Of a stretch of DNA of 57,961 nt, positions 21,780 to 39,480 are shown in pieces. The stretch comes from a virus (Duplodnaviria; Caudoviricetes). The DNA is taken from the IMG/VR virus record IMGVR_UViG_3300031463_000009, positions 1 through 57,961 of that record; one strand, given 5' to 3'. Each line of letters begins with the position of its first letter. Position 1 is the first letter of the stretch. Under the pieces are notes generated by a model that was not told the DNA's origin, did no database searches, and worked only from the letters and a program-made list of their open reading frames with translations. The translations under genes were made by a program, and so were the position numbers.

Positions 21780-22640
21780 ATGGGTGAAAGAAAAAACATG
21801 GGGGTCGCCCAAAAATGGGCACTGGTAGAGCAGATAAAACAGAAATGCCCAGTCCTGCAAGACATTGTCGGGGCTAAGTACGGTAAGGCGGCTAGAAAGA
21901 GTTTCTTTGTAGCTGCTAAAATAGACGTACTTGAGAAAATTATGGAATTAATCAATCAAGGTCGCAGCCCAGAAGAAATTGTAGATTCTGTGGCTGATGG
22001 CATAGTTGTATCATCACCACAGGAAGGCGGACCAGGTCGCGATCCCAAACAAGTCAAGGAGAGACACTTTGAGAGCGTGCCTGACAAGCAGGTTATAGCC
22101 GATCCATTCAGTCCTACAGGTGAGTCTGTTATAACAGTAGGAAAGCCTACCGTAACAGAGGCTAAGAAACCAGATAAAAAGGAAGCTGCAAAGCCTCAGC
22201 CAGAATCAACTGATTTGTTTGACTCCATATGCAAAGAACTAGGGATTAGCAGAGGATTGCCGATAGCAACTAGAATAGCGCAGCTGAAGTATTTGGCCAC
22301 AGCCGGTAAGCTTGCTATATCAGCGTCGGACAAAATTTCAGTCGAAGGCGCTATCCAGGACATAGATAATATTGTCCGAAAAATGATGGTTACGATCATG
22401 GATGATCATGACAAGATAGTTCGTCTCCTAGAGAGGCTTGAGACCATTATCTCAGGTAGGAAACCTGACACTGACAATCCATCTGAAGATTCAACAGAGC
22501 GGAGAAATCTACTTATCAGAAAGCTGGTATCTTTTGGTTACAAAGAAGAAGATATTGCAAATAGTTCTGAAGACGATCTTGAAAAACTTCTGTTGACTGC
22601 CCTAGGTGTTCCTTTGGAACACGATATATTTGATTCTTGA
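21780..22640 (+). CDS. Hypothetical protein
   Basis: 286-aa ORF, AAAGGAG RBS, last gene before terminator. Confidence 0.8.
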   Translation: MGERKNMGVAQKWALVEQIKQKCPVLQDIVGAKYGKAARKSFFVAAKIDVLEKIMELINQGRSPEEIVDSVADGIVVSSPQEGGPGRDPKQVKERHFESVPDKQVIADPFSPTGESVITVGKPTVTEAKKPDKKEAAKPQPESTDLFDSICKELGISRGLPIATRIAQLKYLATAGKLAISASDKISVEGAIQDIDNIVRKMMVTIMDDHDKIVRLLERLETIISGRKPDTDNPSEDSTERRNLLIRKLVSFGYKEEDIANSSEDDLEKLLLTALGVPLEHDIFDS

Positions 22641-22659
22641 TAATTGCCACCTCCTTGAT

Positions 22660-22726
22660 AAGTCTCCCCGGTCTTGGACTAATTAGACTTTAGTCTGAGC
22701 CGGGGAGACTAATTATTTTTTTAGTC
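22660..22726 (+). terminator. Intrinsic terminator ending replication operon
   Basis: AGTCTCCCCGG...CCGGGGAGACT long stem, then TTTTTTTAGTC. Confidence 0.8.
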
Positions 22727-22774: not shown

Positions 22775-25700
22775 ATGATTGACCCTATTGAGCATAGCCG
22801 AGACATTGCCAAATCGGTTGCAGATGCGTTTATGCAAGTATTCCCTATAGAAGGGAGTAAGCATATTCTGCGACTAAACGGTGTTGATGTTGAGCCTAAT
22901 GAGTATATGTCAGACTACCCAGCCCAACTTAAGGCTAAGTTAAGCCATAGAAGTCTGTTTCAGAGGGTGGTGGGGGATTTTTCTCTCATAGATAAAGCCA
23001 CAGGAAAGGTATTGGATCGGAAGAAAATGACTTTGGCACATCTTCCTGCATTGACAGACAGATACTCATATATTGTAGGTGGCACTGAATATACTGTTCC
23101 TATACAGCTTAGGTTGAAACCTGGGGTTTATACAGAGCGTAAAGAGGATGGAACCATTCAAGCCAAACTTAATTTGGTTAACCTAAGAGGTAAAAGTGCC
23201 GCAGTTGTTTTTGACCCTGCTACGAGGATATTTAGTTTCAACTACGGGTCTTCAGAACTTCCGCTATTCCCGATATTAGAGCATCTTGGAGTTTCTGGTC
23301 AAGAATTAAAATCATTAGTTGGAGAAGATGTTTATAACGCAAACATAAAAGACAGAGAAAAAGCGGTTGCTCGTTTTGCTAGGGCGCTAGGAGTAAGCCC
23401 TGAGGATATTAGTAAAGTATTCAACGAGACCGTGCTTGATCCAAATGTTTCTAAATTGACGCTTGGACGATCTTTCTCTAAGGTAGATGGAAATGTGTTA
23501 TTGCTTGCCACAAAAAAAGTTATTGGTGTTTCTAAAGGGATGGCTAAGGAAGATGATAAAAATTCTCTTGCATTCAAAACCCCGATAGATACAGCCGATT
23601 TTTTGAAAGAAAGGATACTAAAATCAAAACAGGTTTTACATAACAGAACTCTAGCAAGGCTCGACAGGCTAAATGATATATCTAAGATTGTTATATCTGA
23701 ACATTTTTCTCATCCTATTCTTACTTTTTTTACCTCCAGCCAAGTTGTTGGACTTCCTTCTCAGGTAAATCCTGTAGATATTGCTTCGTCTGGTTCTAAG
23801 GTTACAGTTCTGGGAGAAGGTGGTATCTCATCTCTCGATCAGATTGTAGAGAAACAACAACAATTGGACCCATCTACTTTTGGTTTTTTAGACCCCATAA
23901 TGACTCCAGACAATTCAAAAGCCGGGCTTGTTGTTCATATGGCTGTTGGAGCCAAAAAGAAAGGAGACTCTTTAGTCTCCAAAGTGTGGGATATTAAAAA
24001 TAAGCAATACACTTATATAACACCTGAGAAAGCTTTTGAGTCTTTCGTGGTTCTTCCAGATCAGGTGAAAATCGTGGATGGCAAGATTAGTTTTGTTTCT
24101 CCAAGAGTAAAAGCAATTCATAAGCATGAAATAGTAGATATACCAGCCAGCAAGGTAGATTATGTGTTTGATGTACCAGAGGCACTTTTCGACATAGCTT
24201 CTTTGGGTATACCTTTTTTAGCTCATGATTCTGGCAATAGAGCTCTTCTTGCTACTAAACATATTGAGCAGAGTTTGCCTCTTGTCGATGCTGATCATCC
24301 ATTAGTTGATGTTGAAGTGGCGAAAGGGCATGGTTGGTCTGACGTTGGAAGAGCCGCGTTCCCGATGGTTGAATCACCTATTGACGGCGTTGTGTCCAAA
24401 GTAACCAAAGACCAAATAGTAATAAAATCTGGAAAGAACGTGGCTAAAGTTCCTCTTCTTAATTATTTCCCTCTTGAAGACGGTGGTTATGCCCATTCTA
24501 CCCCAGTAGTCAAACCAGGCGACAAGGTTAAAAAGGGAGATATTGTTAGCGAAACAAATTTTACAGATAAACAAGGAAAACTCAAGATAGGTAAGAATCT
24601 TTTAGTTGCTTATGTTCCATATAAAGGATTAAATTTTGAAGACGGAATAGTAGTATCTGAAAGTGCAGCTAAAAAGCTAACATCACGCCATTTGTATAGA
24701 GAGAATGTTTATACTTCAAAAGGAATAGCTGTATCCAAAAATAAGCTACTCGCTTTGTATCCTGGGATTTTTAATACTAATCAGTTGAATAAGTTGGATT
24801 CTGATGGAGTAATTAAGGAAGGTGAATATATTGATGAAGGGGATCCTTTAATAGCTGTACTCCAGCATGACATACAACCAAAACCTGAAGAACTTCTCTT
24901 AGCAAGGTTCTCAAAGAAATTGTACCAACCTTGGAAAAATAAGACTGTTACTTGGACTAATCCATTTAGGGGTAGAGTTGTAAGAGTTGTAAAAGGCAAA
25001 AATATAGATGTCTACATAGAAACAGAGGAACCTGCTCAGGTCGGGGACAAGCTGAGTACTAGAGCCGCTCCTAAGGGAATAATAACCTACATAGTCCCAG
25101 ATGCAGAGATGCCAAAAACAGAATCAGGAAAGACCGTAGATGTAATTGTGAACCCGTTGGGGATACCTTCAAGACTCAATTTTGGTCAAGTATTAGAGGC
25201 AGCTGCTGGAAAGATAGCAGAAAAGACAGGAAAACCTAAGATGGTTGCTCAATTTAAGAAGGGCGACCTTGAAGAACTAGAGAAGGAACTTAAAGAGCAT
25301 GGAATTTCGGACAAAGAATATCTAATAGACCCAACGACAGGGGTCAAAACAGAGCATCCTGTTTTGGTAGGTCCTGAATATATTTTGAAACTTAAACACA
25401 CTGCCTTGACGAAAGCCACCGCTCGTGGAGGTGGGGTAGGAGAAAAGTATTCTTATGATTCCATTCCTTTAGGTGGAGAAGGAGCCCAATCTTTAGGTCA
25501 CCTTGGTCTTTATGCGATGCTTGCTCATGGGGCATTGAAGAACCTGTATGAAATGCAGACATATAAAAGTTCGGCGAATCCTGAGTTTTGGTTCGCTTTG
25601 CAATCTGGAGCCCCTCTTCCTCCTCCATCTGTGCCGGTCCCCTATAAAAAATTTGTCGACTATTTGCGCACGCTCGGAGTAGATGTAAAGAAAACAGGAA

Positions 25701-28700
25701 ATGTGCTGCAGCTATACCCACTGTATGACGAAGATATTCTCAAGCTTAGTTCAGGTGAAATAGATCCAACCAAAATAATTAGAGGTAAAGATTTAAGAGA
25801 AGAACCTGGCGGTTTGTTTGATCCTGTTAAAACAGGTGGTATTACAGGGACTAAATATTCTCATATTACACTTAATGCATCGTTTCCTAATCCTATTTAC
25901 AAGGATGCTTTTGCCATTCTGTTTGGTATGACAAGGACTCAATATGATGAGCTAATACAGGGTAAGTTAGGTGTTACTGACGATGGCAAATTATCACCAG
26001 ATGGAAAATACCGACTTGATAAAGCCTTTAAGAAGTTGCTATCCACGCTTGATGTGAAAAAGGAACTGGCAGAATCAGAGGAAAGAATAAAGAACACATC
26101 AGGCATTGAGCGGGCAAAACTGGCCAGAAAAATTAGAATACTTCGTCATCTTGCTGAGTTGAAAAGAAACCCCGAAGATGTTTACATGACTAAGCATGTG
26201 TTGGTTATCCCTCCTTATTTTAGGCCTATAACTGAGACTAAGGATGGAAATATTTCTGTCAATGACCTGAATGGGCTGTATAGAAACATCGGTATTCTAA
26301 ATCAACAGCTTAAACAAGCAAAGGAGCTAACAGATAAAGAACAAGCAGACGCTTATGCGTCAGTTTATTCAGCCCTTGAGGCGTTACAGATGAATGGGCT
26401 TTCAGTTGGGTCTAAGCAATACAGGTCCGTTCTCGATATTATAGCTGGGCCACAACCTAAATTAGGATATTTCCAACAGTCACTTTTGAAGCGGAGGCAG
26501 GATCTAAGTGCAAGGGCTGTCATTGTTGTTCCTAAAGAAAGTATGCCTCTTGATGAAGTAGGACTTCCTGAGAAAATGGCTTGGACAATTTTTGGTCCTT
26601 TGGTTATAAGAAGATTGACCAGAGCCGGTTATACCACCCTACAGGCTACTGAGATGGTAAAAAACAAAGTTCCGGCCGCAAGGACAGCCCTAGAAAGAGA
26701 AATGAAAGAGCGACCTGTATTACTAAAGAGAGACCCGGTATTGCATCGTTATAATGTGATGGCTTTTTACCCCAAGCTTGTTTCTGGAGAAGCTATACAC
26801 ATCCACCCATTGACCTTACAGGGTTTCGGCGGAGACCTTGATGGAGATGCATTTTCTGTGTTTACCCCTGTAACAGAAAATGCTGTAAAAGAGCTACAGA
26901 ACTTATTACCATCTAACAACCTGTTTTCTACTACTTCAGGAAAGGCTTTGTACGCCCCAAGACACGAAGGGTTGATGGGGCTATATCTTTTATCCCGCGT
27001 GGAGAAAAAATCGGATAAGAAATTCGACTCGGTACAAGATTTGATGGCTGCTGTAAATGAGAAAAAAGTTTCCCTTAATGAGGAAGTAACTGTCGCAGGG
27101 AAAAGGACTACTGCCGGAAGAATACTTATTCAAGAGGCACTGCCAAAAGGCTATGAAGTAGATGTTTTAACAGGTAAAAATCTTGCCAAACTACTTTCGG
27201 ACATTGGGCATAAACATCCTAATGATTATCCATCGGTAGTTGAAAAGCTAAGAGTTCTTGGTAATGACTATGCGTTTAGATACGGCGTCAGCATGGGTAT
27301 AGAAGATGTAAAAGTGCCTAAATCCTTACAGGAATATACTAAACGGGTCTGGGACAAAGCTGAGCGTATGGCAGCCAATACTAGAGATCAGGACAAGAAA
27401 ACTAAGATTTTATTAGCTGCGAAAGAGTCCATAGAGAAAAAAGCATTGGAAACTCTTCCAAAAGATTCATTCCTTTACAAAATGGTTGAATCTGGAGCAA
27501 GAGGTAACCCTGGGCAACTTTTGCAAATGACTGTCGGACCTGGTTTGGTAGAACAACACGGGAAATTGATTACTGTTCCTATAAAATCTGGTTATGGCGC
27601 TGGGATGGATGTGACCGATTATTTTACATCGATGCTTGGGGCAAGATCCGGTCTGGTTTCTGGAAAAGCTCGTGAAATTAGAGACCCGGGCTGGCTATCA
27701 AAACAAATGTTGGCGTCGGTATTAGACGTTAGAGTGACCTCCGACGACTGTGGGGTTAAAAAGGGCACTTATATGAGTGTTGATGACGACCAAATTCTAG
27801 GAAGGTATTTGCCTAACGATGTGACCATAAATGGTAAAGTATATCGTAGGAATACATTAGTTACTCCGGAACTTTTGTCCGAAGCGAAGAAGGCTAAGAT
27901 CAAAGAATTAGAGGTTAGATCCCCTTTGAATTGTCAGGCTCCTCATGGAGTTTGTAAGAAATGTATGGGATTAAACCCAAGTGGAAAAGAACATAGGCTA
28001 GGCGAATTTGTTGGGGTATCTGCTGCCCATGCCATAGGTGAACCGAGTTCACAGCTTGCTCTTTCTGGGTGGCATACCGGAGGCGCTGTAGGTGCGCAAA
28101 TATCTCCTTTTAATAGACTACGTCAACTTTTGGCATTCCCAGAGAATTTGTCAGGAGAATCAGTATTAGCCCAGACTTTTGGAAAAGTTGAAGCCATACA
28201 CAAAAAGCCTTTAGGGACAGAGGTAGTAATAAATAATGTTACTCATTGGGTTCCTTCTGACAAGAAAGTAACAGTCTCTGTAGGCGACAAGGTTACTAAG
28301 GGTCAGCCAATTTCTACAGGACTATTTAATCCGAGAAAACATATGGAGCTCGTCGGGGTTGAAGGAACTAGAAATAAGTTGGTTGATGAAATATACAATT
28401 TACTTCGGACACAAACTCCTATTAGAAGAACTAATGTTGAACTTATAGTAAAAGCCTTGACTAATGTAGCAGAAGTAGACGATAGAGGTGGTCACCCACA
28501 TTGGTTAGAAGGAGACCTTGTGCCATTGAATCATGCTAATTGGTTCAACAAATCTGGTAGATTTGCAGAGATTTCTAAAGGAAATGCTGTCGGTGGGAAA
28601 CTATTGGAAAACTACAAAGGATTCAAGAAAGGCACAATTGTGGACAGGAGTATGCTGCCTCATCTTCCTGACCAGGTTAAAGTAGAGTTGCCTCCAGTCA

Positions 28701-28918
28701 AATATAAACCGGTGTTGAAGGGAATTAATGTTCTACCTCTGGAAGTTGGAAGCGACTGGATGACAAAGCTTAATTTCGAGCGCATTAAAACAAGTGTTAT
28801 TGAAGCGGCTATAACTGGGGGGAAATCTAAACTTCAGTCGTTTAATCCAATCCCAGATTTGGTGTATGGCACGGACTTTGCTGACGTTTCTCAAATAATG
28901 GACAAGAAGACAAAATAA
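22775..28918 (+). CDS. rpoBC: Fused beta-beta' DNA-directed RNA polymerase (multisubunit type)
   Basis: Beta motifs: 'FFTSSQ..NP..LGEGG', 'GKNLLVAYVPYKGLNFEDGIVVSE', 'GDKL....PKG', 'NPLGIPSRLNFGQVLE', 'KLKH'. Beta' motifs: 'GLFDP', 'VIPPYFRP', 'LLKRRQDLSARAVI', 'KRDPVLHR', catalytic 'GGDLDGD', 'SGARG', 'AIGEP..QL...HTGG'. Single uninterrupted ORF. Confidence 0.97.
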   Translation: MIDPIEHSRDIAKSVADAFMQVFPIEGSKHILRLNGVDVEPNEYMSDYPAQLKAKLSHRSLFQRVVGDFSLIDKATGKVLDRKKMTLAHLPALTDRYSYIVGGTEYTVPIQLRLKPGVYTERKEDGTIQAKLNLVNLRGKSAAVVFDPATRIFSFNYGSSELPLFPILEHLGVSGQELKSLVGEDVYNANIKDREKAVARFARALGVSPEDISKVFNETVLDPNVSKLTLGRSFSKVDGNVLLLATKKVIGVSKGMAKEDDKNSLAFKTPIDTADFLKERILKSKQVLHNRTLARLDRLNDISKIVISEHFSHPILTFFTSSQVVGLPSQVNPVDIASSGSKVTVLGEGGISSLDQIVEKQQQLDPSTFGFLDPIMTPDNSKAGLVVHMAVGAKKKGDSLVSKVWDIKNKQYTYITPEKAFESFVVLPDQVKIVDGKISFVSPRVKAIHKHEIVDIPASKVDYVFDVPEALFDIASLGIPFLAHDSGNRALLATKHIEQSLPLVDADHPLVDVEVAKGHGWSDVGRAAFPMVESPIDGVVSKVTKDQIVIKSGKNVAKVPLLNYFPLEDGGYAHSTPVVKPGDKVKKGDIVSETNFTDKQGKLKIGKNLLVAYVPYKGLNFEDGIVVSESAAKKLTSRHLYRENVYTSKGIAVSKNKLLALYPGIFNTNQLNKLDSDGVIKEGEYIDEGDPLIAVLQHDIQPKPEELLLARFSKKLYQPWKNKTVTWTNPFRGRVVRVVKGKNIDVYIETEEPAQVGDKLSTRAAPKGIITYIVPDAEMPKTESGKTVDVIVNPLGIPSRLNFGQVLEAAAGKIAEKTGKPKMVAQFKKGDLEELEKELKEHGISDKEYLIDPTTGVKTEHPVLVGPEYILKLKHTALTKATARGGGVGEKYSYDSIPLGGEGAQSLGHLGLYAMLAHGALKNLYEMQTYKSSANPEFWFALQSGAPLPPPSVPVPYKKFVDYLRTLGVDVKKTGNVLQLYPLYDEDILKLSSGEIDPTKIIRGKDLREEPGGLFDPVKTGGITGTKYSHITLNASFPNPIYKDAFAILFGMTRTQYDELIQGKLGVTDDGKLSPDGKYRLDKAFKKLLSTLDVKKELAESEERIKNTSGIERAKLARKIRILRHLAELKRNPEDVYMTKHVLVIPPYFRPITETKDGNISVNDLNGLYRNIGILNQQLKQAKELTDKEQADAYASVYSALEALQMNGLSVGSKQYRSVLDIIAGPQPKLGYFQQSLLKRRQDLSARAVIVVPKESMPLDEVGLPEKMAWTIFGPLVIRRLTRAGYTTLQATEMVKNKVPAARTALEREMKERPVLLKRDPVLHRYNVMAFYPKLVSGEAIHIHPLTLQGFGGDLDGDAFSVFTPVTENAVKELQNLLPSNNLFSTTSGKALYAPRHEGLMGLYLLSRVEKKSDKKFDSVQDLMAAVNEKKVSLNEEVTVAGKRTTAGRILIQEALPKGYEVDVLTGKNLAKLLSDIGHKHPNDYPSVVEKLRVLGNDYAFRYGVSMGIEDVKVPKSLQEYTKRVWDKAERMAANTRDQDKKTKILLAAKESIEKKALETLPKDSFLYKMVESGARGNPGQLLQMTVGPGLVEQHGKLITVPIKSGYGAGMDVTDYFTSMLGARSGLVSGKAREIRDPGWLSKQMLASVLDVRVTSDDCGVKKGTYMSVDDDQILGRYLPNDVTINGKVYRRNTLVTPELLSEAKKAKIKELEVRSPLNCQAPHGVCKKCMGLNPSGKEHRLGEFVGVSAAHAIGEPSSQLALSGWHTGGAVGAQISPFNRLRQLLAFPENLSGESVLAQTFGKVEAIHKKPLGTEVVINNVTHWVPSDKKVTVSVGDKVTKGQPISTGLFNPRKHMELVGVEGTRNKLVDEIYNLLRTQTPIRRTNVELIVKALTNVAEVDDRGGHPHWLEGDLVPLNHANWFNKSGRFAEISKGNAVGGKLLENYKGFKKGTIVDRSMLPHLPDQVKVELPPVKYKPVLKGINVLPLEVGSDWMTKLNFERIKTSVIEAAITGGKSKLQSFNPIPDLVYGTDFADVSQIMDKKTK

Positions 28919-28955: not shown

Positions 28956-29729
28956 GTGAGTACTAGGTCGAATATGGTTGATCCTAACTTGGAAAGAGCA
29001 AAAGCTCTTGTTGAGCTTTCTAAATTTCCAAAAGCCAGCAAGAAATACGGTCCTGCGTATTCAAAGGTGCTTATGGGTTTCCCAAGTTCTACTATAGATA
29101 GTCTCATCAGAAAAATTAGAGGAATACCTAAAGATGCCCCACATTTCAATGAGCAGGCTCTGCTAGAACTTTTAAAAAGAAAAGACCTAGCAGAGACCTA
29201 TGTGGCACATGCAGTTCCTTCGGCTAAAGTAATTTATGCGTTATCAGAAAAACGAAAACAGCAGCTACGAGAACTTGCGGATTTAGAAGACTATTTGCGC
29301 ACGGCTAAAGCTATTCTTCCTCAGAGGCCACCTCTTGGTAGAATAAGACTAAATAAAGAGCAACTAAGGAAACTAAAAGAACTAGTAATAGCTCACGAAC
29401 TTGATGAAAAAGAACTAGCTGATAAGTACACTAAAGGATTGATTTTCAAGCGCTTAGATGCACCTAGAGTAGCTGGTCATATAGCGCCGGACATATTACT
29501 TAGAGAGAGTAACAGACTATATCTACAGCATGATAGACAACTGTGGAAAGCTATGGCCGCTGTAAGGATGGTTACTGGCGAGTATTCGTTACTAAAATCC
29601 TGTGGGATTAATTATGGTAAAGAGTATATCTCACCTGGGAGTAATAGATATAAAGCGGCAGTAAAACGAATAAATGAACTATGGAGTAATGTAGGAACTG
29701 TTTTGTATGGAGGTGCAGGTATAGACTAA
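28956..29729 (+). CDS. Hypothetical basic protein (HELDE motif)
   Basis: 257-aa ORF after GAGG; 'AHELDE...GH.AP..L.RESN'. Confidence 0.7.
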   Translation: MSTRSNMVDPNLERAKALVELSKFPKASKKYGPAYSKVLMGFPSSTIDSLIRKIRGIPKDAPHFNEQALLELLKRKDLAETYVAHAVPSAKVIYALSEKRKQQLRELADLEDYLRTAKAILPQRPPLGRIRLNKEQLRKLKELVIAHELDEKELADKYTKGLIFKRLDAPRVAGHIAPDILLRESNRLYLQHDRQLWKAMAAVRMVTGEYSLLKSCGINYGKEYISPGSNRYKAAVKRINELWSNVGTVLYGGAGID

Positions 29730-29768
29730 TCTTTTAGAATGCACTAATATTTTTTTAGGAGGATTTAT

Positions 29769-30560
29769 ATGAACACTTTGCAAAAATTGGCAGACGAGGC
29801 TCAGGGAATCGATCCTTGGGCGTCCCCAGTATATCAAGCAGCTGTAAATAGAGCACTTGCGGATTTGGACAGAAAAGCACGTTTGGCATTTAGGAAAGTT
29901 AAAAAGCCGGTTGTTGATACAGAGAAAGAAGCACCATCACCTCTCTTGGCTTCCATGACAGGACACCCAGGTGCTCCATGGACTCCTTCATGGGCAAATC
30001 CACCAAAACAACAAGCGACAAAACAAGAAACACCAACATCAACGCCGACAGCGTCGGCTCTTTTGTCTGCTATATCAAGACATCCTGTCGCTGCTGGATT
30101 AGGAGCAGCCGGCACACTTGCTGGAGTTGGAACCCTTGCAGCGCTTTTAGCAAGACGAAGGGCAGAGAGATCATTCGCTGAGGCACTTGCACAAAGAGCT
30201 CCAGCAGCATTCGGAGGTTTAGGCAGCCTTGCTCCCCTTGGTGGTGGTTTACTCGCTGGCTACTTATTAGGACGTAGGAGCCAGAAACAGGCTTCTGCTT
30301 TGCCAACAGTTGAAGAATTGATTAATGAATTAAGGAATGGTCTTGAAAAATTGGGGTTCGATATGGTTAGTCCTCTTAGCTCATTGCCGGCAGTTAAACC
30401 CCAGATTGCCCCTATCTTTCCTGGGGCTATACCTCAAGCAGTCGCTAAACCTGGGGTGAACCCACTTGGACCACCAGGTCCTTCTGGTAGAGCTTTGTAT
30501 AGAGTTAGAACTCCTACGGCTGGTGAGTTGGCTGGTTACTCTATGCTTAGAAACAAATAG
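29769..30560 (+). CDS. Putative virion precursor protein (Gly/Ala-rich TM-like segments, K-x-A/G linkers)
   Basis: Starts MNTLQKLA; shares 'HPVA.GLGAAG.L.G.G.L.ALLARRRA' with next gene; linker 'KQASA...GLEKLG'. Confidence 0.65.
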   Translation: MNTLQKLADEAQGIDPWASPVYQAAVNRALADLDRKARLAFRKVKKPVVDTEKEAPSPLLASMTGHPGAPWTPSWANPPKQQATKQETPTSTPTASALLSAISRHPVAAGLGAAGTLAGVGTLAALLARRRAERSFAEALAQRAPAAFGGLGSLAPLGGGLLAGYLLGRRSQKQASALPTVEELINELRNGLEKLGFDMVSPLSSLPAVKPQIAPIFPGAIPQAVAKPGVNPLGPPGPSGRALYRVRTPTAGELAGYSMLRNK

Positions 30561-30685
30561 ACACAGACACTTAAATGTTAAGTAAAAAATTGATGGTTTT
30601 GTAGTAATAGAGTAAATAGACTTATGATTAGTTAGAGCTATACTTATCATTTAGTCTATTTTATTATTTTTTTAGGAGGACTATT

Positions 30686-32368
30686 ATGAACACTTTGAGA
30701 AAACTGGCCGGTTGGAGAGAATCCTACAATAAAGCAATGAATGTAATTGGCTATCCCGGAGAAGCTCTTGCTGGAATTATGGAGAAAAAGTTCAATCCTG
30801 ACGCATATTATGCTGGAAAAACTCCACCGTCTCCACCCCCTAGACAGAAAATACCGAAAGAGCCACAATATAGTACTCGTGGTCCTGTAGATGAGATTGT
30901 ACACACGTACACTAGTGCTGGATACCCAGCCCCCGAAACAGTGATACTTCCTGGTGTTCAAGCCACATTTCAGACCGAAGCAGGAAGGGAAGCTGTTGAT
31001 AAAGCTATAGCAGAGGACGAACTGAAAGCAAGGATGGAAGAATACAGGCAAATGATGCGTGGGCAGTCGGATGTTAAACCCAGACTTCCGTCGGCTACTA
31101 CTAGTCAACTAATTGACGAACTGCTTGGAAGAGCTAAAGAGAATATCAAAGCCAAAGCTTATAGTGCTAAGGCGGATCTTGGGAAAGTCTATCAAGAACG
31201 GGCTAAACCGTCAGCTGAAGCTGCTTTATCTGCTGTTAAAGGACATCCTGTCGCTACTGGATTGGGAGCCGCCGGTGCACTTGGGGGACTTGGAGCTCTC
31301 ATAGCCCTTTTGGCAAGACGAAGAGCACAGAAGGCTATGGCTACATCACTTGCAGCAAATGCCCGACCTGCATTAATGGAGGGATTGGCTAAATATGGTC
31401 CTCTTGCTCGTAGGTTTGGTCCTTGGTTGGGCGCTGGTTTAGTAGCTGGGTATTTACTGAACAGGGGTAAAAGCGCATCTGCCCCACAGACATTCCAAGA
31501 ATGGGCTGATGGGATAAGGAGCAGCATCGAAAAAGTTGGAGATGATGGGGATCTGCAAGGAGCATATCAACAGAATGTCAGGCCACATCTTGAATCTGCT
31601 ACCAGATCCGCGCTGCGGGCATATCAGCAAAATGTCAAACCTGTTGTTGGGGCAGCTGCTGGTACACCTGTAGGGCGTGCACTGGCAAATCAAGCCAATT
31701 TGATTGGGAACACTTTTAGGCAAGGTGTTCAGAATGTGCAGAGAGGGTATCAGCAAAATGTCAAACCAGTTGTTGAAGCTGCTGCTGGTACACCATTAGG
31801 ACGTGGAATAGCAGACCAAGTCAACTTAGTTGGAAACTATTGGAGGAACGCCGGCAATAAGGCTTATCAGAATGTTGTTAAACCTTTAGCTGGAGAAATA
31901 GCGTCTACTGTTAGACAACATCCTGTTGGTACGATGCTTGCACCTGGGGCTGTAATTGGGACTAGTTTAGGGGCTGGTTTAGGGGCTGGTTTAGGTTCTT
32001 TGCTGAGAAATAAAAAACAATCATCGGCACCACAGACATTCCAAGAATGGGCCGCTGGAGTGAGGGAAGGAATTGAAAAAGTCGGATTCGGTTGGGGAGA
32101 TGTTAGACAAGGTTTATCACGGGCAGGCGGTTTTGTTGCTGATCAAGGACGCTTAATCGGCAATTACTGGGGAAATGTTGGTAGAAGGGCGAACGAATAT
32201 GTCAGGTCTAATATTATAGACCCTACTCCCCAGATGCAGCCTCAAACCCCTGCTCAACCCCAAGCTAAAAAACCGTCTGGGGGTGGAGGCTTGGGGACGT
32301 TCTTCTTAGGCACTCCACTAAAGTCTCCTGCAAGAGAGCAACTTAAGGGGGTAGATTTTGGTGACTAA
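30686..32368 (+). CDS. Putative virion polyprotein with internal repeats
   Basis: Starts MNTLRKLA; two 'K.(A/S)SAPQTFQEWA.G.R..IEKVG' linkers; YQQNVKP repeats; three Gly/Ala hydrophobic stretches. Confidence 0.65.
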   Translation: MNTLRKLAGWRESYNKAMNVIGYPGEALAGIMEKKFNPDAYYAGKTPPSPPPRQKIPKEPQYSTRGPVDEIVHTYTSAGYPAPETVILPGVQATFQTEAGREAVDKAIAEDELKARMEEYRQMMRGQSDVKPRLPSATTSQLIDELLGRAKENIKAKAYSAKADLGKVYQERAKPSAEAALSAVKGHPVATGLGAAGALGGLGALIALLARRRAQKAMATSLAANARPALMEGLAKYGPLARRFGPWLGAGLVAGYLLNRGKSASAPQTFQEWADGIRSSIEKVGDDGDLQGAYQQNVRPHLESATRSALRAYQQNVKPVVGAAAGTPVGRALANQANLIGNTFRQGVQNVQRGYQQNVKPVVEAAAGTPLGRGIADQVNLVGNYWRNAGNKAYQNVVKPLAGEIASTVRQHPVGTMLAPGAVIGTSLGAGLGAGLGSLLRNKKQSSAPQTFQEWAAGVREGIEKVGFGWGDVRQGLSRAGGFVADQGRLIGNYWGNVGRRANEYVRSNIIDPTPQMQPQTPAQPQAKKPSGGGGLGTFFLGTPLKSPAREQLKGVDFGD

Positions 32369-32426
32369 TGTGCCAATCTTGGCAATACTAAATAATTAGT
32401 ATAAATTTACTTTAGGAGGTAAAAAC

Positions 32427-32867
32427 ATGGAAGACTATGAACTGTTAAAAACAGCAGCTGCATTAGATGCAGCCAAGAACAATGATGTCAACACTTTAGC
32501 AGAGCTATTCGTCATGGATCTGGATGACGCTACTAAAGAGGCATTGGCGAATGCTCTTGTGAAGGAGGCTGACTGGAACCTCTTTACAGGCGACGCTGGA
32601 GAGGCCCTTGCTCGTCTGTACGAGAGAATATTCCACCCAGAAGCCTACAGGGCTGGTCAGATCACGCCGGAAGATATTGAGGGTATAAAGAACAGAAATA
32701 CCATTGCACAACAGCGTGAGTTGATCAAAAAACTCAAATTAGGTGTTGGTGGAGCAACTGGGGCAGCTGGATTGGCTGGTCTTTTGGCAGCAGCGTTGGC
32801 ACTTCGTGGGCGTGCTCGCGGAGGCAGCAAACTCGTTTCCTTGCTAAGAAAGGTTCGTCCTCGGTAA
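32427..32867 (+). CDS. Leader-cargo precursor, array member 1
   Basis: 48-aa acidic leader ending VKEA; variable middle; hydrophobic plus basic tail ending LRKVRPR. Confidence 0.8.
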   Translation: MEDYELLKTAAALDAAKNNDVNTLAELFVMDLDDATKEALANALVKEADWNLFTGDAGEALARLYERIFHPEAYRAGQITPEDIEGIKNRNTIAQQRELIKKLKLGVGGATGAAGLAGLLAAALALRGRARGGSKLVSLLRKVRPR

Positions 32868-32950
32868 GTCTCTGGTAAACGCTTAAAGCCCTGTTTGACA
32901 ATCGTCAGATTTGTCAATCGGGTCTTGTAGACTAGATGAAGGAGGATAAC

Positions 32951-33322
32951 ATGGAAGACGATTATGAACTGTTAAAAACAGCAGCAGCATTGAACGCTGT
33001 AGAGAATGATGATGTCAACACTTTAGCAGAACTATTCGTCATGGAACTGGATAACGATACTAAAGTGGCACTGGCTAATGCTCTTGTAAAAGAGGCTGAA
33101 GGAGAAATAGGAAGAGATGAGAAAATTCCACCTTGGCTAGGTTCGGGTTTGCGATACGAAAGAATCAAAAAAATTCTTAGCGGACCTGCTGGATGGGGTG
33201 GAGCAGCTGGGTTGGCTTCTATACCGGGCATTTTGGCACTAGCATTAGCGCTTCGCAGACGTGGTGGTGCTAAAGGAGCTAACAAGCTCGTTTCTATGCT
33301 AAGAAAGGTTCGTCCTCGGTAA
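32951..33322 (+). CDS. Leader-cargo precursor, array member 2
   Basis: ATG at 32951 after GGAGG; same leader; same C-terminal LRKVRPR. Confidence 0.8.
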   Translation: MEDDYELLKTAAALNAVENDDVNTLAELFVMELDNDTKVALANALVKEAEGEIGRDEKIPPWLGSGLRYERIKKILSGPAGWGGAAGLASIPGILALALALRRRGGAKGANKLVSMLRKVRPR

Positions 33323-33418
33323 GCGGGGATATTGGTAAGAGCTTGGAGACCTGTTTTTGATACCCACCTTGCTGTCATCAGGTTTTAGACGCTGTGTAGC
33401 TAGCATAGTGAGGTCGAC

Positions 33419-33709
33419 ATGAAAGACGACTATGAACTGTTGAAAACAGCAGCAGCGTTAGATGCAGCCAAAAACAATGATGTTAACACTTTAGCAGAGC
33501 TATTCGTCATGGATCTGGATGACGCTACTAAAGAGGCATTGGCGAATGCTCTTGAGAAAGAGGCTTCATCTAAGTTACTAGCAAGACTTGCAAGAAGAAC
33601 TGCTAGTAGAAGTGCCGGTCTAAGGACTGCATTGGCTTCTCTTCTATTGGCTAGGGGTAGAGGTAAGTCTAACCAGATCAAGACTTTATTACGATTTTTG
33701 AGGAAGTAA
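33419..33709 (+). CDS. Leader-cargo precursor, array member 3 (cationic cargo)
   Basis: Same leader ending EKEA, then a 47-aa Arg/Leu-rich peptide. Confidence 0.8.
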   Translation: MKDDYELLKTAAALDAAKNNDVNTLAELFVMDLDDATKEALANALEKEASSKLLARLARRTASRSAGLRTALASLLLARGRGKSNQIKTLLRFLRK

Positions 33710-33710
33710 C

Positions 33711-34196
33711 TTGAAAGAGTATTTTAAGCTGGCGGATGATAATAATGATCATAAAGTAATTGATACTCTTAACGAGTATTTTTTCCGCCCTGGCATCATG
33801 AGATTAGTCACTGAGATAATAAGAAAGAAGAGTGTTCCACAAACTGTGAGAACCCCTGAATTGCTTCCAGTAGTTCTTCTTCTTGCAGCTATTGGAAAAA
33901 GCGCTGAAAAGAAAGCAAGTGAGCCATATTTTCCTCCTCCTCCGGTTGTGCAGCCTCCGCCTCCTCCTAGTTTTTATAATGCCCAGCAATTTCTTAAGGA
34001 AGAACAGAAGAGTAATAAATCTAGGTGGCTTATTCCAGTTGTAGCCGCTGGATTATTTCTTTACTTACTATCTCAGCAGAGACCTATTTCTGAAATAAGG
34101 GAGTTCATAGGTAGGAATAGGCCTTTACTAACTATGATTCCTGTGCTAAGCTATTTTTTAGGTAAGAAACCTGAGGAAGAAAATGCGACTAAATGA
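33711..34196 (+). CDS. Putative membrane-associated virion protein (Pro-rich linker)
   Basis: 'FKLA' and 'EKKAS' sites, poly-Pro, TM-like 'WLIPVVAAGLFLYLL'. Confidence 0.65.
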   Translation: MKEYFKLADDNNDHKVIDTLNEYFFRPGIMRLVTEIIRKKSVPQTVRTPELLPVVLLLAAIGKSAEKKASEPYFPPPPVVQPPPPPSFYNAQQFLKEEQKSNKSRWLIPVVAAGLFLYLLSQQRPISEIREFIGRNRPLLTMIPVLSYFLGKKPEEENATK

Positions 34197-34449
34197 GGAA
34201 GATCTAATAAAACTGGCACAGATTTCAGAACTATTAGAATCTGATGGGACGAACGTCCCTTTGTTTATAGGATCTCTTCCTGATAGAGTAATAGAACAAT
34301 TCTTGAGTATAGATCAAAATGACTTGGAAAAGACTGCGGCCTTTCTTTCACTTCGTGGACTTGGCAGACTTTTTGGAGGCTTAGGACGTGCGGTTAGAAG
34401 AACGAGTAGATTTTTAAAACTAAGACGACCTTTTCCACGATTCCTTTAA
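34183..34449 (+). CDS. Acidic leader + cationic amphipathic peptide precursor (divergent array member)
   Basis: Leader resembles array leader (LIKLA...LFIGSLPD...EKTA), then AFLSLRGLGRLFGGLGRAVRRTSRFLKLRRPFPRFL. Confidence 0.75.
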   Translation: MRLNEEDLIKLAQISELLESDGTNVPLFIGSLPDRVIEQFLSIDQNDLEKTAAFLSLRGLGRLFGGLGRAVRRTSRFLKLRRPFPRFL

Positions 34450-34543
34450 AAATCGTTTGATTTTTTGATATAGATAAACGAGGAGTAGTTAAACACTGAA
34501 CTACTCGTTTATTTAATGTTTTTTCAGTAGAAGGAGGTAGAAA

Positions 34544-35191
34544 ATGACTTGGATTAAAGGAATCGTTATTTCTGTTGTGTCTGTGCTTGTCTGTTCTGCT
34601 GGTTGGTTGTTGCTTATTTTATTTTCTAATGTGCCAAACTTACATGTCAAAGATGGTTACTTCGTGGACCAGAAATACCATGTCTATCAGGTGTTTGAAG
34701 ATGGAGTTATTTGTCTGTATGTTCCAAAAAGAAACGGGTATGTGTGTAAGGGTGTTCCACCAGAATTCTTTAGTGCACTAAATACTATATTTGATGCTGA
34801 TCTGTTCAAGGCTACTGAAATGAAGGCTGGGAGCATAGAGAAAGTAATAGAGGAAGCAAGTGCTGTGCATGGTGTAGATCCAAAGCTCGCAAAGGCGGTT
34901 GCAAAGGTAGAATCCAATTATCGTGCTGATGCTACATCACCTAAAGGATGCAAGGGGGTGATGCAGATTTGCACTTATACTGGTGAATCTGATCTTTATA
35001 ACCCGGTTATTAATGTTTATGTCGGTGTTCAAAAGTTGAAAGCGTTGATTGATGAGTTCGGGGATGAGGAACTCGCATTAGCAGCTTACAATTCAGGCCC
35101 AACTGCTGTGCGTAGATATGGTGGTGTCCCTCCATACAAGGAAACTCGTGAGTATATCAAAAAAGTGCTAAAGATTAAAAATGAAATTTAA
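34544..35191 (+). CDS. Lytic transglycosylase (SLT domain) with N-terminal membrane anchor
   Basis: 'VDPKL.KAVAKVESNY...A.SPKG.KGVMQ', 'ALAAYNSG', 'GGVPPYKETREY'. Confidence 0.92.
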   Translation: MTWIKGIVISVVSVLVCSAGWLLLILFSNVPNLHVKDGYFVDQKYHVYQVFEDGVICLYVPKRNGYVCKGVPPEFFSALNTIFDADLFKATEMKAGSIEKVIEEASAVHGVDPKLAKAVAKVESNYRADATSPKGCKGVMQICTYTGESDLYNPVINVYVGVQKLKALIDEFGDEELALAAYNSGPTAVRRYGGVPPYKETREYIKKVLKIKNEI

Positions 35192-35240
35192 ATAGCTACT
35201 TCAATTAGTTGCATTTAGACGACTAATGTAATAAACTAAT

Positions 35241-35320
35241 AAAGGCGGGGTAAAAACCCTGATGATGTAAGTAATAAGTATTCTGTGGGTTAGTCGATAA
35301 TACCCCGCCTTTTTTAGTCT
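35241..35320 (+). terminator. Long-loop hairpin terminator or candidate small RNA
   Basis: AAAGGCGGGGTA/TACCCCGCCTTT stem enclosing AACCC/GGGTT, then TTTAGTC. Confidence 0.55.
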
Positions 35321-35372
35321 GTTCAATTGACTAATCTTTAGTTAAGCGGTATCACTTTATTTGGAGGTTAAT

Positions 35373-37058: not shown

Positions 37059-37913
37059 GTGTTCGGTTCGGAGTTTCCTTTAGGTCTTCCTGTAGACACA
37101 CCATATTGGAGATACTTAATCTATCTTTTTCTTGAGGAATACCCAAAAGGTTTGGGAGCATCAGAAAGGGTTAAGGGAAGACTAGTAAGAGAAGATGTAG
37201 TAGACGCTCTTCCTATATTCTATGATTCCCTGGAGAAGTTAGTCAAAGAGAAGCCTAAAAAAGAACTAATAGAGGCGTTTGACCTATTCTTTGCTTTTGA
37301 CACAAACTCTGGTAAATGCATGGAATGGGATAAGGTGCAATATCTATTTTTCAACTTCAGACACTATATCGACATATTCTTATTCAGTGTGTCCTTTAAG
37401 TTTGATGAAGCATCAGAATTGATAAGTGATAAACTCAAGTTCGTTGTCGACAGCAATAGCTTAGGTATATATGCTCATTATTTCTTTGACCCAATGTTTG
37501 TATACTCCTACCAATTATTTACTGATTTTCTACAAAGATGCCGAAACTTCTCCACATCTCTGCCTTATTTCTTCGCACATGCTGGAGAAATAGATGCGGC
37601 ACTATGTGCTATAAATGCTAGGCGTTTAAGCAAGGAACTAATGCTCCAAAGAACAGCGGAATTAAATTTCCTTAAGTTTCTAAAGGTTGCTAAGATAGAC
37701 AGGGACCGTGGGGAGTCAACAGCAAAAGAAATGTTCCTATACACACAAGGAATTGCAATTGCACAACGTGAACTCGGAAAGGCTACAGGGGACCAATCAG
37801 AGCTTCAAAATGTCCTTGACAAATTCAGACTCGAGGAAGACAAATCTGTTGCTAAAAAGAAAGTCGTGTTTGAACTTCCGTCTGCAAGTCAATCAGAAGA
37901 AGCTAAAAAATAA
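37059..37913 (+). CDS. Hypothetical protein
   Basis: 284-aa ORF abutting the upstream gene. Confidence 0.75.
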   Translation: MFGSEFPLGLPVDTPYWRYLIYLFLEEYPKGLGASERVKGRLVREDVVDALPIFYDSLEKLVKEKPKKELIEAFDLFFAFDTNSGKCMEWDKVQYLFFNFRHYIDIFLFSVSFKFDEASELISDKLKFVVDSNSLGIYAHYFFDPMFVYSYQLFTDFLQRCRNFSTSLPYFFAHAGEIDAALCAINARRLSKELMLQRTAELNFLKFLKVAKIDRDRGESTAKEMFLYTQGIAIAQRELGKATGDQSELQNVLDKFRLEEDKSVAKKKVVFELPSASQSEEAKK

Positions 37914-37941
37914 AGAATTTTCTGGCATAACTATTAGGAAG
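37903..37941 (+). promoter_or_regulatory. Putative phage promoter (motif variant)
   Basis: CTAAAA AATAAAGAATTTTCTGGC ATAAC. Confidence 0.4.
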
Positions 37942-37970
37942 CCACAAACTAAAACCAAAGGAGGAAGACT

Positions 37971-38174: not shown

Positions 38175-38194
38175 ATATGCTATAATTATCCATT

Positions 38195-39426: not shown

Positions 39427-39427
39427 T

Positions 39428-39480
39428 GGCTAAAAAAGAAGGGAGGATGTTTTATCCCTCCCCCCTTCTTTTTTTTAGTC
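39428..39480. terminator. Bidirectional intrinsic terminator
   Basis: GGCTAAAAAAGAAGGGAGG...CCCCTTCTTTTTTTTAGTC between convergent clusters. Confidence 0.85.

Follow-up and report, generated by a model that had tools for sequence, protein, structure and literature searches.

Locus and gene neighborhood

The window is the whole stretch of DNA that was analyzed, 57,961 nucleotides, and it is an entire IMG/VR record. It was 32% complete by CheckV, and the phage genome was estimated at roughly 180 kb. Judged by its shared genes, the phage is a distant relative of Salmonella phage Arash and Vibrio phage D69. The window shares with Arash the portal protein, TerL, PolA, the capsid protein, and two structural proteins (tblastn), and the polymerase described below is therefore taken to be of phage origin. 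The portal protein gene (positions 1 to 1386, +) is cut at the window start and matched Arash gp204 at E 3e-38. The major capsid protein gene (52833 to 53936, +) matched Arash gp226 at E 7e-9 by tblastn and had no match in a Pfam search. TerL matched PF05876 at E 1e-14 and PF03237 at just E 4.5e-4, under the cut-off.

The polymerase gene lies at 22775 to 28918 (+). A hairpin followed by a U-run, resembling a terminator, was found directly 5' of it by RNA folding (22656 to 22724, +). The hairpin was predicted at -37.5 kcal/mol with a z score of -5.78, and 0 of 200 shuffles were equally stable. A same-strand block of ORFs, mostly without a family match, follows at 28956 to 39426 (+). The earlier note held that the gene heads a block of putative core proteins. 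It does head a same-strand block, with the hairpin and U-run on its 5' side and short gaps downstream, but a "core" nature of the block is not supported: only one ORF, at 34544 to 35191, has a recognizable domain, an SLT transglycosylase domain. Most of the 20 flanking ORFs had no match in PHROG and Pfam. The ESM Atlas gave no usable match for the ORFs flanking the polymerase at 21780 to 22640 (upstream) and 28956 to 29729 (downstream). Homologues of the ORF at 35361 to 37058 also lie downstream of the polymerase gene in two relatives, L011 and L012.

Canonical sigma70-type promoters were not enriched at 20 to 40 kb (39, versus 41.6 +/- 6.2 in shuffles). A k-mer search for a phage promoter returned a T-run motif only, TATTTTTTTAG, which was rejected because it lies too near start codons to be a promoter alone.

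The polymerase gene

The gene starts with ATG and encodes 2047 amino acids. The ORF list supports its limits. Beta motifs are followed by beta' motifs in one ORF, as first noticed from the letters alone, and the translation, the order of Pfam domains, and the PDB matches all agree. Both modules are complete, with the three catalytic Asp, the beta Lys and Glu-Asp motifs, the bridge helix, the trigger-loop His, and the second zinc site present. The chain is about 25% smaller than the E. coli beta and beta' pair; the quoted total of about 2750 amino acids for that pair agrees with PDB chain lengths of 1342 and 1407. The term "minimised" is apt to a modest degree: the two halves have 973 and about 1075 residues, and none of the listed PDB chains is shorter than 1070 (beta) or 1161 (beta'). 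Comparison with the sister gene gave 36 nonsynonymous versus 242 synonymous differences. With a dN/dS of 0.039 over both halves, the gene is evidently under strong purifying selection. In predicted structures, both halves fold confidently onto solved bacterial subunits.

(a) Beta half. The beta module covers residues 1 to about 973 (22775 to 25693, +), and its alignment with bacterial beta extends as far as the C-terminal region of the latter. It contains Rpb2_2 (weak, E 0.051), Rpb2_3 (residues 330 to 393), and Rpb2_6 (residues 537 to 887, E 3e-61). With phmmer, bacterial beta in the PDB was matched at E 2e-76, and the alignment runs up to residue 973, opposite residue 1158 of chain 8i23_C (1250 residues). 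The AlphaFold2 model of residues 1 to 985 had a mean pLDDT of 85.3 and a pTM of 0.80, and Foldseek matched it to bacterial beta chains at TM 0.73 to 0.78 (by query). The NFEDG motif is at residues 620 to 624 (24632 to 24646, +), and its E622 and D623 are invariant in 30 family sequences. Residues ~680 to 725 (24812 to 24949, +) align, pairwise to 8i23_C and in the family consensus, with the bacterial beta flap tip. The active-center motif GDKLSTRAAPKG, a variant of GDK..RHGNKG, is at residues 757 to 768 (25043 to 25078, +), and D758, K759, and K767 are invariant in the family. Its "AAP" occurs in only 2 of 112 family proteins, the window protein and its sister.

(b) Beta' half. The beta' module covers residues about 985 to 2047 (25727 to 28915, +) and was assigned by Pfam and PDB matches. 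It contains Rpb1_1 (residues 1082 to 1190), Rpb1_2, Rpb1_3, Rpb1_4, and Rpb1_5 (the last reaching, from 1610, to 1900). Residues 1083 to 1918 matched bacterial beta' in the PDB at E 6e-102 (phmmer). The predicted model of residues 973 to 2047 had a mean pLDDT of 86.6 and a pTM of 0.81. Among its top 50 Foldseek matches, TM by query was 0.80 to 0.85 for most bacterial beta' chains and went down to 0.72 for some Thermus entries. The region aligned to the bacterial clamp helices is at residues ~1135 to 1215 (26177 to 26419, +). It was modeled as two long helices (model residues 192 to 235), and its scaffold is kept while its surface residues have diverged from the bacterial consensus. The catalytic motif GGDLDGD is at residues 1352 to 1358 (26828 to 26848, +). 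The DxDGD metal-binding loop is present, and D1354, D1356, G1357, and D1358 are invariant in 30 family sequences and 9 bacterial beta' sequences. The bridge-helix motif TSMLGARSG is at residues 1618 to 1626 (27626 to 27652, +), and the trigger-loop motif QLALSGWHTGG, with its His kept, is at residues 1760 to 1770 (28052 to 28084, +). The second zinc site (C1659, C1720, C1727, and C1730; 27749 to 27964, +) is invariant against 9 bacterial beta' sequences and nearly so in the family.

The four Cys columns of the bacterial beta' N-terminal zinc ribbon are gapped in the window protein, and 0 of 46 fused members had three or more Cys in that region. By these alignments, the ribbon is absent from the whole phage family. 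A map of other bacterial beta' segments missing from the phage protein gave four short blocks, with an unsure N-terminal alignment, and we therefore limit the description to the loss of the zinc ribbon.

Junction and fused family

The beta-to-beta' junction is at residues about 960 to 996 (25652 to 25762, +) and has no spacer domain in the alignments. The beta alignment stops at residue 973, and a beta' N-terminal motif conserved in the family begins at ~985. The junction had been placed near 25620 to 25760, and the strings quoted for it do fall within that interval, one at residue 960 (nt 25652) and the other at residue 992 (nt 25748). The family search returned 318 matches at E <= 1e-3 among 7998 scored candidates. 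The 120 listed included 111 of phage type, and all 111 span residues 940 to 1010 in one alignment. Forty of them are full fusions of <= 2160 aa, and 25 are full fusions with inserts (65 full in all). Another 39 end near residue 1440, and 7 have other forms. The family occurs on contigs up to 215 kb.

With at least 111 clusters listed, this family of fused phage polymerases is large, yet it is barely described. Fusion in phages with cellular-type polymerases was not described in the literature searched, which included term look-ups in PMC7598289, PMC7824862, PMC12619734, and PMC13282480. How polymerase genes fuse and split in evolution is clearly illustrated by the common junction and by the two fixed sites inside beta' at which secondary breaks occur.

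Sigma, alpha, and omega

A six-frame search of the window at E <= 1 was negative for sigma region 2 (PF04542), for alpha (PF01000), and for omega (PF01192). In 14 control genomes, the same models were positive in 11/14, 14/14, and 14/14, respectively. As the record is 32% complete, little can be concluded from this about the phage as a whole. Arash gp10, gp196, gp205, and gp8 and the sigma-like ORF of D69 were compared with all window ORFs of at least 60 aa by BLASTP and phmmer, and no match was better than E 0.06.

The sister contig (G001) is collinear with window positions 1 to 31556 at ~94.5% nucleotide identity. It encodes a complete RpoD-like sigma70-family protein of 496 aa with regions 1.2, 2, 3, and 4. 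The sigma gene lies ~7.4 kb to the left of the window start and is flanked by homologues of Arash gp236, gp237, and gp217. The earlier remark that no alpha, omega, or sigma gene is visible thus describes the window correctly, but the missing sigma is an effect of the window edge. Sigma region 2 also passed the Pfam cut-off in Arash gp196 and in one D69 ORF. Fragment G002, 73% complete, had no PF04542 match, so a recognizable sigma is not universal in the family. The G001 sigma closely resembles bacterial RpoD (E 8e-84), whereas the phage beta' has diverged from the bacterial consensus on its clamp-helix surface. This sigma might therefore serve the host polymerase instead. Complex prediction with its region 2 (residues 225 to 350) and beta' residues 975 to 1420 scored 0.00 in both runs, which is neutral on binding.

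Alpha and omega (PF01000, PF01193, and PF01192) were absent at E <= 1 from the complete Arash and D69 genomes and from fragments G001 to G003, with controls positive in 14/14; these are three Pfam models, which a very divergent substitute would escape. The phage enzyme probably works with a phage sigma and without an alpha subunit.

Comparison with known polymerases

The window polymerase is a real new member of an already known kind of phage enzyme. Arash Gp206 and Gp216 and their homologues in Vibrio phages D69, D148, and D181 have the same beta-to-beta' junction. Identity to the window protein was 28 to 31%, over 98% of it for D69 and over 70% plus 23% for Arash. In the beta' tree, this group and the fully fused clade are sisters (support 99, LG+G4 only). 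The gene of this group is cut near window residue 1440 to 1449 into a beta plus N-terminal beta' piece and a C-terminal beta' piece, and the distance between the two is 0.6 kb in D69 and 4.8 kb in Arash. The window gene has no such break.

Natural rpoB-rpoC fusions occur in Helicobacter and Wolbachia, and E. coli fusions have been engineered; the beta C terminus is joined to the beta' N terminus, giving one active chain. Such enzymes are otherwise of the ordinary bacterial type and retain alpha, omega, and the zinc ribbon of beta'. The window family differs from them in forming a phage clade separate from all 34 sampled bacteria and in having no beta' N-terminal zinc ribbon.

Rhizobium phage RHph_TM3_3_6, Vibrio phage Va2, and Cobetia phage Carin-5 group with the fused family against 16 bacteria (support 92, LG+G4 only). 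They are ~27 to 29% identical to part of the window protein and have a separate beta' gene of 927 to 1192 aa, unlike the fused window gene. In Carin-5, an annotated sigma gene immediately precedes the beta gene; this phage is on a very long branch (3.7).

The mReC lineage comprises metagenomic tailed phages, some on contigs of >200 kb, whose beta and beta' align with cellular ones and form their own clade (PMC7481178). The window family resembles it in both the alignable cellular-type subunits and the separate phage clade. The window enzyme is fused, whereas the mReC text available to us does not mention a beta-beta' fusion (PMC7481178). The mReC filter required NADxDGD in beta' (PMC7481178), which the window's GGDLDGD fails. 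The mReC capsids matched PF07068 (gp23 type), with only 8 capsids among 97 contigs, and the terminase was PF03237 (PMC7481178); the window departs from both, and no PF07068 capsid was found in it or in the records of 5 relatives. On the motif and the capsid, membership in mReC as published, which the earlier note had raised, therefore cannot be shown. Among the phage and bacterial sequences sampled, the window family forms one clade and groups with other phage beta' proteins.

The crAss-like virion polymerase, the phiKZ/AR9 multisubunit polymerases, and YonO are two-barrel enzymes without alpha, and some are packaged in virions (PMC7598289, PMC7481178). They are barely detected by cellular HMMs, whereas the window protein reaches E 6e-102 to bacterial beta'. 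In PHROG, phiKZ-type families matched at E 1e-26 to 3e-4, versus 4e-102 and 1e-74 for the two best families. The phiKZ/AR9 and crAss types have 4 to 5 pieces or extreme divergence, and the window enzyme is one chain.

Proposed function and virion packaging

We consider it likely, with a probability of about 0.7, that the gene product is the catalytic core of the phage's own bacterial-type polymerase, an enzyme that has beta and beta' in one chain, lacks alpha, uses a phage sigma, and is partly delivered by the virion. The covalent beta-beta' link would replace the assembly role of the alpha dimer, since two complete related genomes encode no alpha or omega. Promoter recognition would be provided by a phage sigma70-family protein, because sigma is present in G001, Arash, and D69. 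The enzyme would be produced late, together with virion proteins. At least part of it would be packaged and delivered with the DNA, and phage genes would then be transcribed without the host polymerase.

A core from a single gene without alpha or omega would be a handy object for structural and mechanistic work. If alpha-free, it would be a direct test of any need for the alpha dimer other than in assembly. Because this large family includes cultured phages (Arash and D69), virion delivery, sigma usage, and independence from the host polymerase are testable now.

Virion packaging of the window enzyme is supported only indirectly, by published data on Arash particles. In mass spectrometry of Arash particles, Gp206 had the most spectra (3516), above the major capsid protein; Gp216 had 1210, and the sigma-like Gp10 had 467 (PMC10585845). 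The preparation contained 116 proteins, many of them enzymes, and its authors allow for carry-over of abundant proteins (PMC10585845). Such carry-over could account for the Arash detection if the polymerase is made after infection and reads middle and late genes, while the host polymerase, perhaps redirected by the RpoD-like phage sigma, reads early genes. We regard this as unlikely, though it has points in its favor. The nearly canonical G001 sigma would fit the host core enzyme. The window polymerase gene comes after replication and recombination genes and not after the portal gene. Some phages carry separate virion and non-virion polymerase sets, and Arash (where the two places are its two pieces) and D69 each have one set. 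Against it stand the rank of Gp206 in Arash particles and the position of the gene beside the portal gene in 4 of the 5 relatives examined. In Arash, D69, L011, and L012, the portal gene adjoins the polymerase gene or lies upstream of it, at 3.4 to 4 kb for the portal homologues of L011 and L012.

Active-center variants

The window protein has GGDLDGDAFSVF versus NADFDGDxMAVH, RAAPKG versus RHGNKG, GARSG versus GARKG, and LSGWH in the trigger loop. Each variant occurs in just 2 to 4 of 112 family proteins. The "NA" of NADxDGD, replaced in the window's GGDLDGD, is present in 53/112, and other members are also variable at the deviating positions. From these comparisons, the active-center motifs of the window lineage are remodeled under strong purifying selection. 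The changes place Gly for Asn in NADFDGD, RAAP for RHGN in beta, Ser for Lys in the bridge helix, and Ser for Arg in the trigger loop. The Asn of NADFDGD reads the ribose hydroxyls of the incoming nucleotide. It is conceivable, though doubtful, that the family is a self-sufficient, alpha-free, single-chain polymerase injected with the DNA and that the nucleotide-binding pocket of the window lineage was rebuilt under strong selection in a way that alters the accepted substrates. Such a pocket could discriminate less strongly against deoxy or modified nucleotides, or it could allow a modified template to be read.

The same departures from the family consensus, each in so few proteins, could mark the window copy as degenerate or repurposed and perhaps no longer a standard RNA polymerase. 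We give this very little credence, as dN/dS is 0.039 over both halves, the three catalytic Asp, both beta Lys, the Glu-Asp pair, and the trigger-loop His are all kept, and the same positions vary in other family members.

Phylogeny and origin

Trees were built with LG+G4 for the larger sets, of 81 and 37 rows and including 41 phage and 34 bacterial proteins, and with a mixture model on 32 rows only. The 41 phage proteins formed one clade with support 100 (LG+G4), apart from all 34 sampled bacteria, and 12 phage proteins formed one clade under the mixture model. The phylogeny that the earlier note had proposed thus sets the phage proteins apart from the sampled bacteria, but a place outside all Bacteria is not robust. 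Its term "deep-branching" is likewise not robust. Bacterial monophyly had a support of just 65 under the mixture model, and a phage plus CPR clade was not rejected (p-AU 0.66), its tree being 4.7 log-likelihood units better than the free tree.

That CPR result and the strong similarity to bacterial subunits would fit a host rpoB-rpoC pair captured recently and then fused, or bacterial DNA misassembled into a viral contig. Such an origin is very improbable, and contamination or recent capture was rejected. The best 80 of at least 600 bacterial rpoC loci were all 27 to 32% identical, versus 32 to 40% within the phage family; the phage clade was recovered under both models; phage genes surround the polymerase gene on two collinear contigs that are independent of each other; and the family is spread over contigs up to 215 kb.

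Anatomy of the polymerase gene

The polymerase gene lies on the plus strand at 22775-28918 of the window. The ORF list and translation show one ORF there, 2047 codons long and starting with ATG. Its N-terminal half contains the Pfam domains Rpb2_3 and Rpb2_6 (E 3e-61) and, weakly, Rpb2_2. The beta' domains Rpb1_1 to Rpb1_5 follow. Among PDB sequences, the N-terminal half has its counterpart in bacterial beta (8i23_C, E 2e-76) and the C-terminal half in bacterial beta', where 8i23_D is the top match (E 6e-102, query residues 1083-1918). The earlier note had described one ORF holding beta and then beta'. The 2047-aa ORF, the Pfam order and the PDB matches bear this out, and the single-chain polymerase is real.

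The 8i23_C alignment ends at query residue 973, opposite position 1158 of the 1250-residue chain. The beta' N-terminal motif that is conserved across the polymerase family begins near residue 985. The two strings that had been quoted to place the junction lie at residues 960 and 992. The beta-to-beta' junction is therefore where it was first set, and it contains no spacer domain.

The two halves were modeled separately with AlphaFold2, each on a 30-row family alignment. The model of residues 1-985 was confident (mean pLDDT 85.3, pTM 0.80), and Foldseek placed it onto full-length bacterial beta with a TM of 0.73-0.78 by query. The model of residues 973-2047 was also confident (mean pLDDT 86.6, pTM 0.81). 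It matched bacterial beta' with a TM of mostly 0.80-0.85, down to 0.72 for some Thermus entries.

The polymerase family and its junction

A large protein database contained 318 matches at E <= 1e-3 among 7998 scored candidates. Among the best 120 of the 318, one protein, encoded on a 73-kb contig, is 98% identical to the window protein and 110 more are phage-type at 27-40% identity; bacterial beta' follow from E 1e-98 on. Full fusions of up to 2160 aa account for 40 of the 111 phage-type relatives listed. Another 25 are full fusions lengthened by inserts, many with intein or homing-endonuclease Pfam families. A further 39 consist of beta and the N-terminal portion of beta' and end near window residue 1440; the remaining 7 are partial or of another form. 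Window residues 940-1010 are spanned in one alignment by each of the 111 listed relatives, so none of them lacks the junction. Family proteins are public and recognized as polymerase, since one database relative is titled 'rpoB ... [uncultured Caudovirales phage]' and Gp206 of Salmonella phage Arash is annotated as a beta subunit.

Twelve proteins of the beta plus N-terminal beta' class were examined singly; 11 end at 1440-1443 and the other at 1426. About a dozen additional phage-type proteins came from a further search among proteins of <1125 aa. Six of these were examined. Four end at window residues 1062-1075, one ends at 1021 (on a 4.8-kb contig), and one aligns only to residue 761; none of the six ends exactly at the beta/beta' junction. 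The relatives P0066-P0110 and P0123-P0126 are split at two fixed sites within beta' (~1440 and ~1062-1075) and never at the beta/beta' junction.

The cultured phages carry a polymerase gene of the split kind. Arash encodes Gp206 (1525 aa) and Gp216 (606 aa) 4.8 kb apart, and Vibrio phage D69 encodes proteins of 1527 and 609 aa 0.6 kb apart, whereas the window gene is unbroken. In Vibrio phages D148 and D181, an annotated homing endonuclease lies beneath the match. The most parsimonious interpretation is a junction inherited from the family's ancestor, with the breaks in beta' introduced later by mobile elements. That the whole family shares the junction and is broken secondarily at two fixed sites goes beyond the earlier note.

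The available sections of a study of Arash report mass spectrometry of its particles (PMC10585845). Gp206 was top in spectra (3516); the counts for Gp216 and the sigma-like Gp10 were 1210 and 467. With 116 proteins detected, many of which are enzymes, the authors in these sections also allow for carry-over (PMC10585845).

Five matches from the phage collection (H5, H6, H9, H15, and H17) are in unannotated records named as Enterococcus, Staphylococcus, and Listeria phages. Some of these records are only 3.6-5.8 kb, and the matches resemble host rpoB/rpoC. Host DNA may have been deposited as phage in these cases.

Conserved and altered sites

Thirty family members share, without exception, the three metal-loop Asp, the beta Glu-Asp, and the Asp-Lys and Lys of the beta GDK...KG. 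The trigger-loop His and the four Cys that form the second zinc site vary little or not at all in the 30 members. Comparison with nine bacterial beta' likewise shows no change at the metal-loop Asp or the zinc-site Cys. The window protein lacks the N-terminal zinc ribbon of bacterial beta' and has gaps in the columns of the ribbon's Cys. None of 46 fused, intein-free family members has at least three Cys in this region; the loss of the ribbon is family-wide.

The window protein and its 98% identical sister are atypical at four active-centre motifs, each in a variant found in 2-4 of 112 family proteins. The beta' metal loop (26828-26863) reads GGDLDGDAFSVF versus NADFDGDxMAVH in the family and bacteria; 'GG' occurs in 4/112 and 'NA' in 53/112. 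The beta active centre (25043-25078) reads RAAPKG versus RHGNKG in the family and bacteria ('AAP' in 2/112). The same comparison gives GARSG versus GARKG in the bridge helix (27626-27652; 'S' in 2/112) and QLALSGWH versus QLxM(R/K)xFH in the trigger loop (28052-28084; 'ALSGW' in 2/112).

The window and sister genes differ by 242 synonymous and 36 non-synonymous changes. The resulting dN/dS of 0.039, similar in both halves, shows that this is a working gene. The active centre in the window lineage is remodeled but selected. Neither this nor the family-wide loss of the zinc ribbon was part of the earlier note.

Partner subunits

No match to sigma, alpha, or omega was found in the window, which is the whole record at 32% completeness. 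The earlier note had seen none of the three either. That holds for the window, but the absence of sigma is partly an edge effect, as the sister record G001 carries a sigma gene ~7.4 kb to the left of the window start. G001 is collinear with window positions 1-31556 at ~94.5% nucleotide identity and extends 30 kb further left. Its sigma70-family gene is at G001 38711-40201 (L013:1015-2505, minus strand). It encodes 496 aa with regions 1.2, 2, 3, and 4. The protein is near bacterial RpoD (E 8e-84 to 7ye1_F) and is similar to Arash gp196 (E 1e-12). The surroundings contain homologues of Arash structural gp236 and gp237 and helicase gp217, and the GC content is even across the region. The gene may be a fairly recent capture from a host.

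Sigma region 2 scored above the Pfam cut-off in Arash gp196 and in one D69 ORF, and Arash gp10 matches sigma region 3. No sigma matches were found in G002 (73% complete) or G003 (31%), which are fragment records of relatives. Alpha (PF01000 and PF01193) and omega (PF01192) gave no matches in Arash and D69, both complete genomes, or in G001-G003; the searches were positive in 14/14 control genomes. The sigma gene just outside the window and the complete relatives without alpha and omega are additions to the earlier note.

Stretches that align to the bacterial sigma-docking elements, the beta' clamp helices and the beta flap tip, are present in the window protein. The clamp-helix residues that are near-invariant in bacteria are largely replaced. 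The covalent beta-beta' link may substitute for alpha-driven assembly, and promoter specificity would come from a phage sigma. The RpoD-like sigma of G001 may work with the phage enzyme or with that of the host.

In Cobetia phage Carin-5, a cultured 155-kb phage, genes annotated as a sigma factor, as beta (1083 aa), and as beta' (927 aa) stand side by side (L219, 1835-8660), which makes a compact transcription module of three genes.

Phylogeny

Prokaryotes were scanned with one genome per species, which yielded at least 600 rpoC stretches. The top 80 of these were all bacterial, from many phyla, with 27-32% identity to the window protein. Giant-virus RPB1 genes, fetched by motif pattern, served as the outgroup. 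An LG+G4 tree contained 81 rows and 1012 columns, with a maximum of four rows each for Clostridia and Actinomycetes and with bacterial rows of <1050 aa left out. It placed the 41 fused phage proteins in one clade (SH-aLRT 100) and the 34 bacteria (14 phylum labels) in another (SH-aLRT 99). Under LG+C20+F+G4 (32 rows, 894 columns), support for the phage clade was 100 and that for bacterial monophyly was down to 65.

A tree with cultured phage beta' added was run under LG+G4 only, with 37 rows. Arash and D69 were the sister of the fused clade (support 99). Outside these fell Rhizobium phage RHph_TM3_3_6 and Vibrio phage Va2, in which beta' is encoded separately. All phage rows were together (support 92), and the Carin-5 branch was very long. 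Every rooted tree carries a long-branch warning.

The window polymerase is not nested in any of the sampled non-CPR phyla, and it is no recent capture from a host. In the AU test, a tree forced to join the phages with three CPR bacteria, a group picked after the tree was seen, scored better than the free quick tree by 4.69 log-likelihood units, and the test did not reject it (p-AU 0.659). The trees fit a placement outside all Bacteria or as sister to CPR and cannot tell the two apart. The bacterial monophyly of 65 and the p-AU value leave the 'deep-branching' claim on a weak basis, a point that goes beyond the earlier note.

Comparison with known systems

The mReC phage lineage also has a cellular-type polymerase. 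In the available sections of its description, beta and beta' are two subunits and fusion is mentioned for crAss-like phages only (PMC7481178). The survey covered 97 contigs, its filter demanded NADxDGD, and mReC capsids matched PF07068 (PMC7481178). The window protein fails this filter, although 'NA' is kept in about half of the family. PF07068 is absent from the window, from the complete genomes of Arash and D69, and from three fragments.

Term look-ups in the accessible text of the jumbo-phage transcription reviews (PMC7598289, PMC7824862, and PMC13282480) and of a paper on a new phage lineage (PMC12619734) returned no mention of a cellular-type polymerase fusion in phages. Full-text searches of the accessible literature found none either. 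The window polymerase is best filed as a somewhat atypical phage-encoded cellular-type RNA polymerase from the Arash/D69 and mReC-like world.

Gene neighborhood

The window is an entire, linear IMG/VR virus record. CheckV completeness is 32%, and the full phage genome should therefore be ~180 kb. Every window ORF of 60 aa or more was compared by tblastn with the complete 181-kb Arash genome, and the homologues had 22-36% identity. They include the portal (19-1386), the large terminase (3683-5275, minus strand), a family A DNA polymerase (14582-16402), the RNA polymerase gene itself (22775-28918, plus strand), and the major capsid protein (52833-53936). Homologues of the structural proteins gp222 (47960-49384) and gp233 (54670-55452) were also found. 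The genes upstream of the polymerase gene include several for replication and lysis; they encode a helicase, a DnaB-like helicase, a primase, PolA, a UvsX-like recombinase, an amidase, and an exonuclease, and there is a weak RusA-like match. No tRNA genes were found in the window.

In Arash and D69, a single small ORF separates the portal gene from the neighboring polymerase gene. The portal gene is 3.4-4 kb upstream in L011 and L012, the loci of fused relatives. In the window the two genes are ~21 kb apart, with the terminase and replication genes in between.

A hairpin (-37.5 kcal/mol, z -5.78) and then a U-run lie directly upstream of the polymerase start. Same-strand ORFs continue downstream with gaps of 37-169 nt as far as 39426. 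For these reasons the polymerase gene plausibly heads a transcription unit; the earlier note had it heading a block of putative core proteins. The downstream ORFs are at most putative core proteins. Their sole known domain is an SLT transglycosylase (34544-35191). PHROG matches of that ORF include internal virion proteins. Homologues of the ORF at 35361-37058 also lie downstream of the polymerase gene in L011 and L012. At 20-40 kb, canonical sigma70-type promoters show no enrichment (39 versus 41.6 +/- 6.2 in shuffles). Terminator-like hairpins in the same interval are enriched (29 versus 15.0 +/- 4.4).

The string TATTTTTTTAG followed by G or T occurs on the plus strand at 22717, 28933, 29751, and 30668. 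These sites are just before the ribosome-binding sites of four consecutive genes, the polymerase gene included. TTTTTTTAG is present in 6 of 26 intergenic stretches. The neighboring plus-strand ORFs at 29769-30560 and 30686-32368 have near-identical starts (MNTL, Q or R, KLA) and near-identical upstream bases. They may be paralogues; neither has a family match. The G+C content is 45-46% at 30001-34000 versus 37-42% elsewhere in the window, and the ORFs in this interval have no family match. A G+C-rich hairpin at 39427-39474 has flanking T-runs on both strands and is at the meeting point of the plus-strand and minus-strand blocks. By eye, it looks like a two-way terminator.
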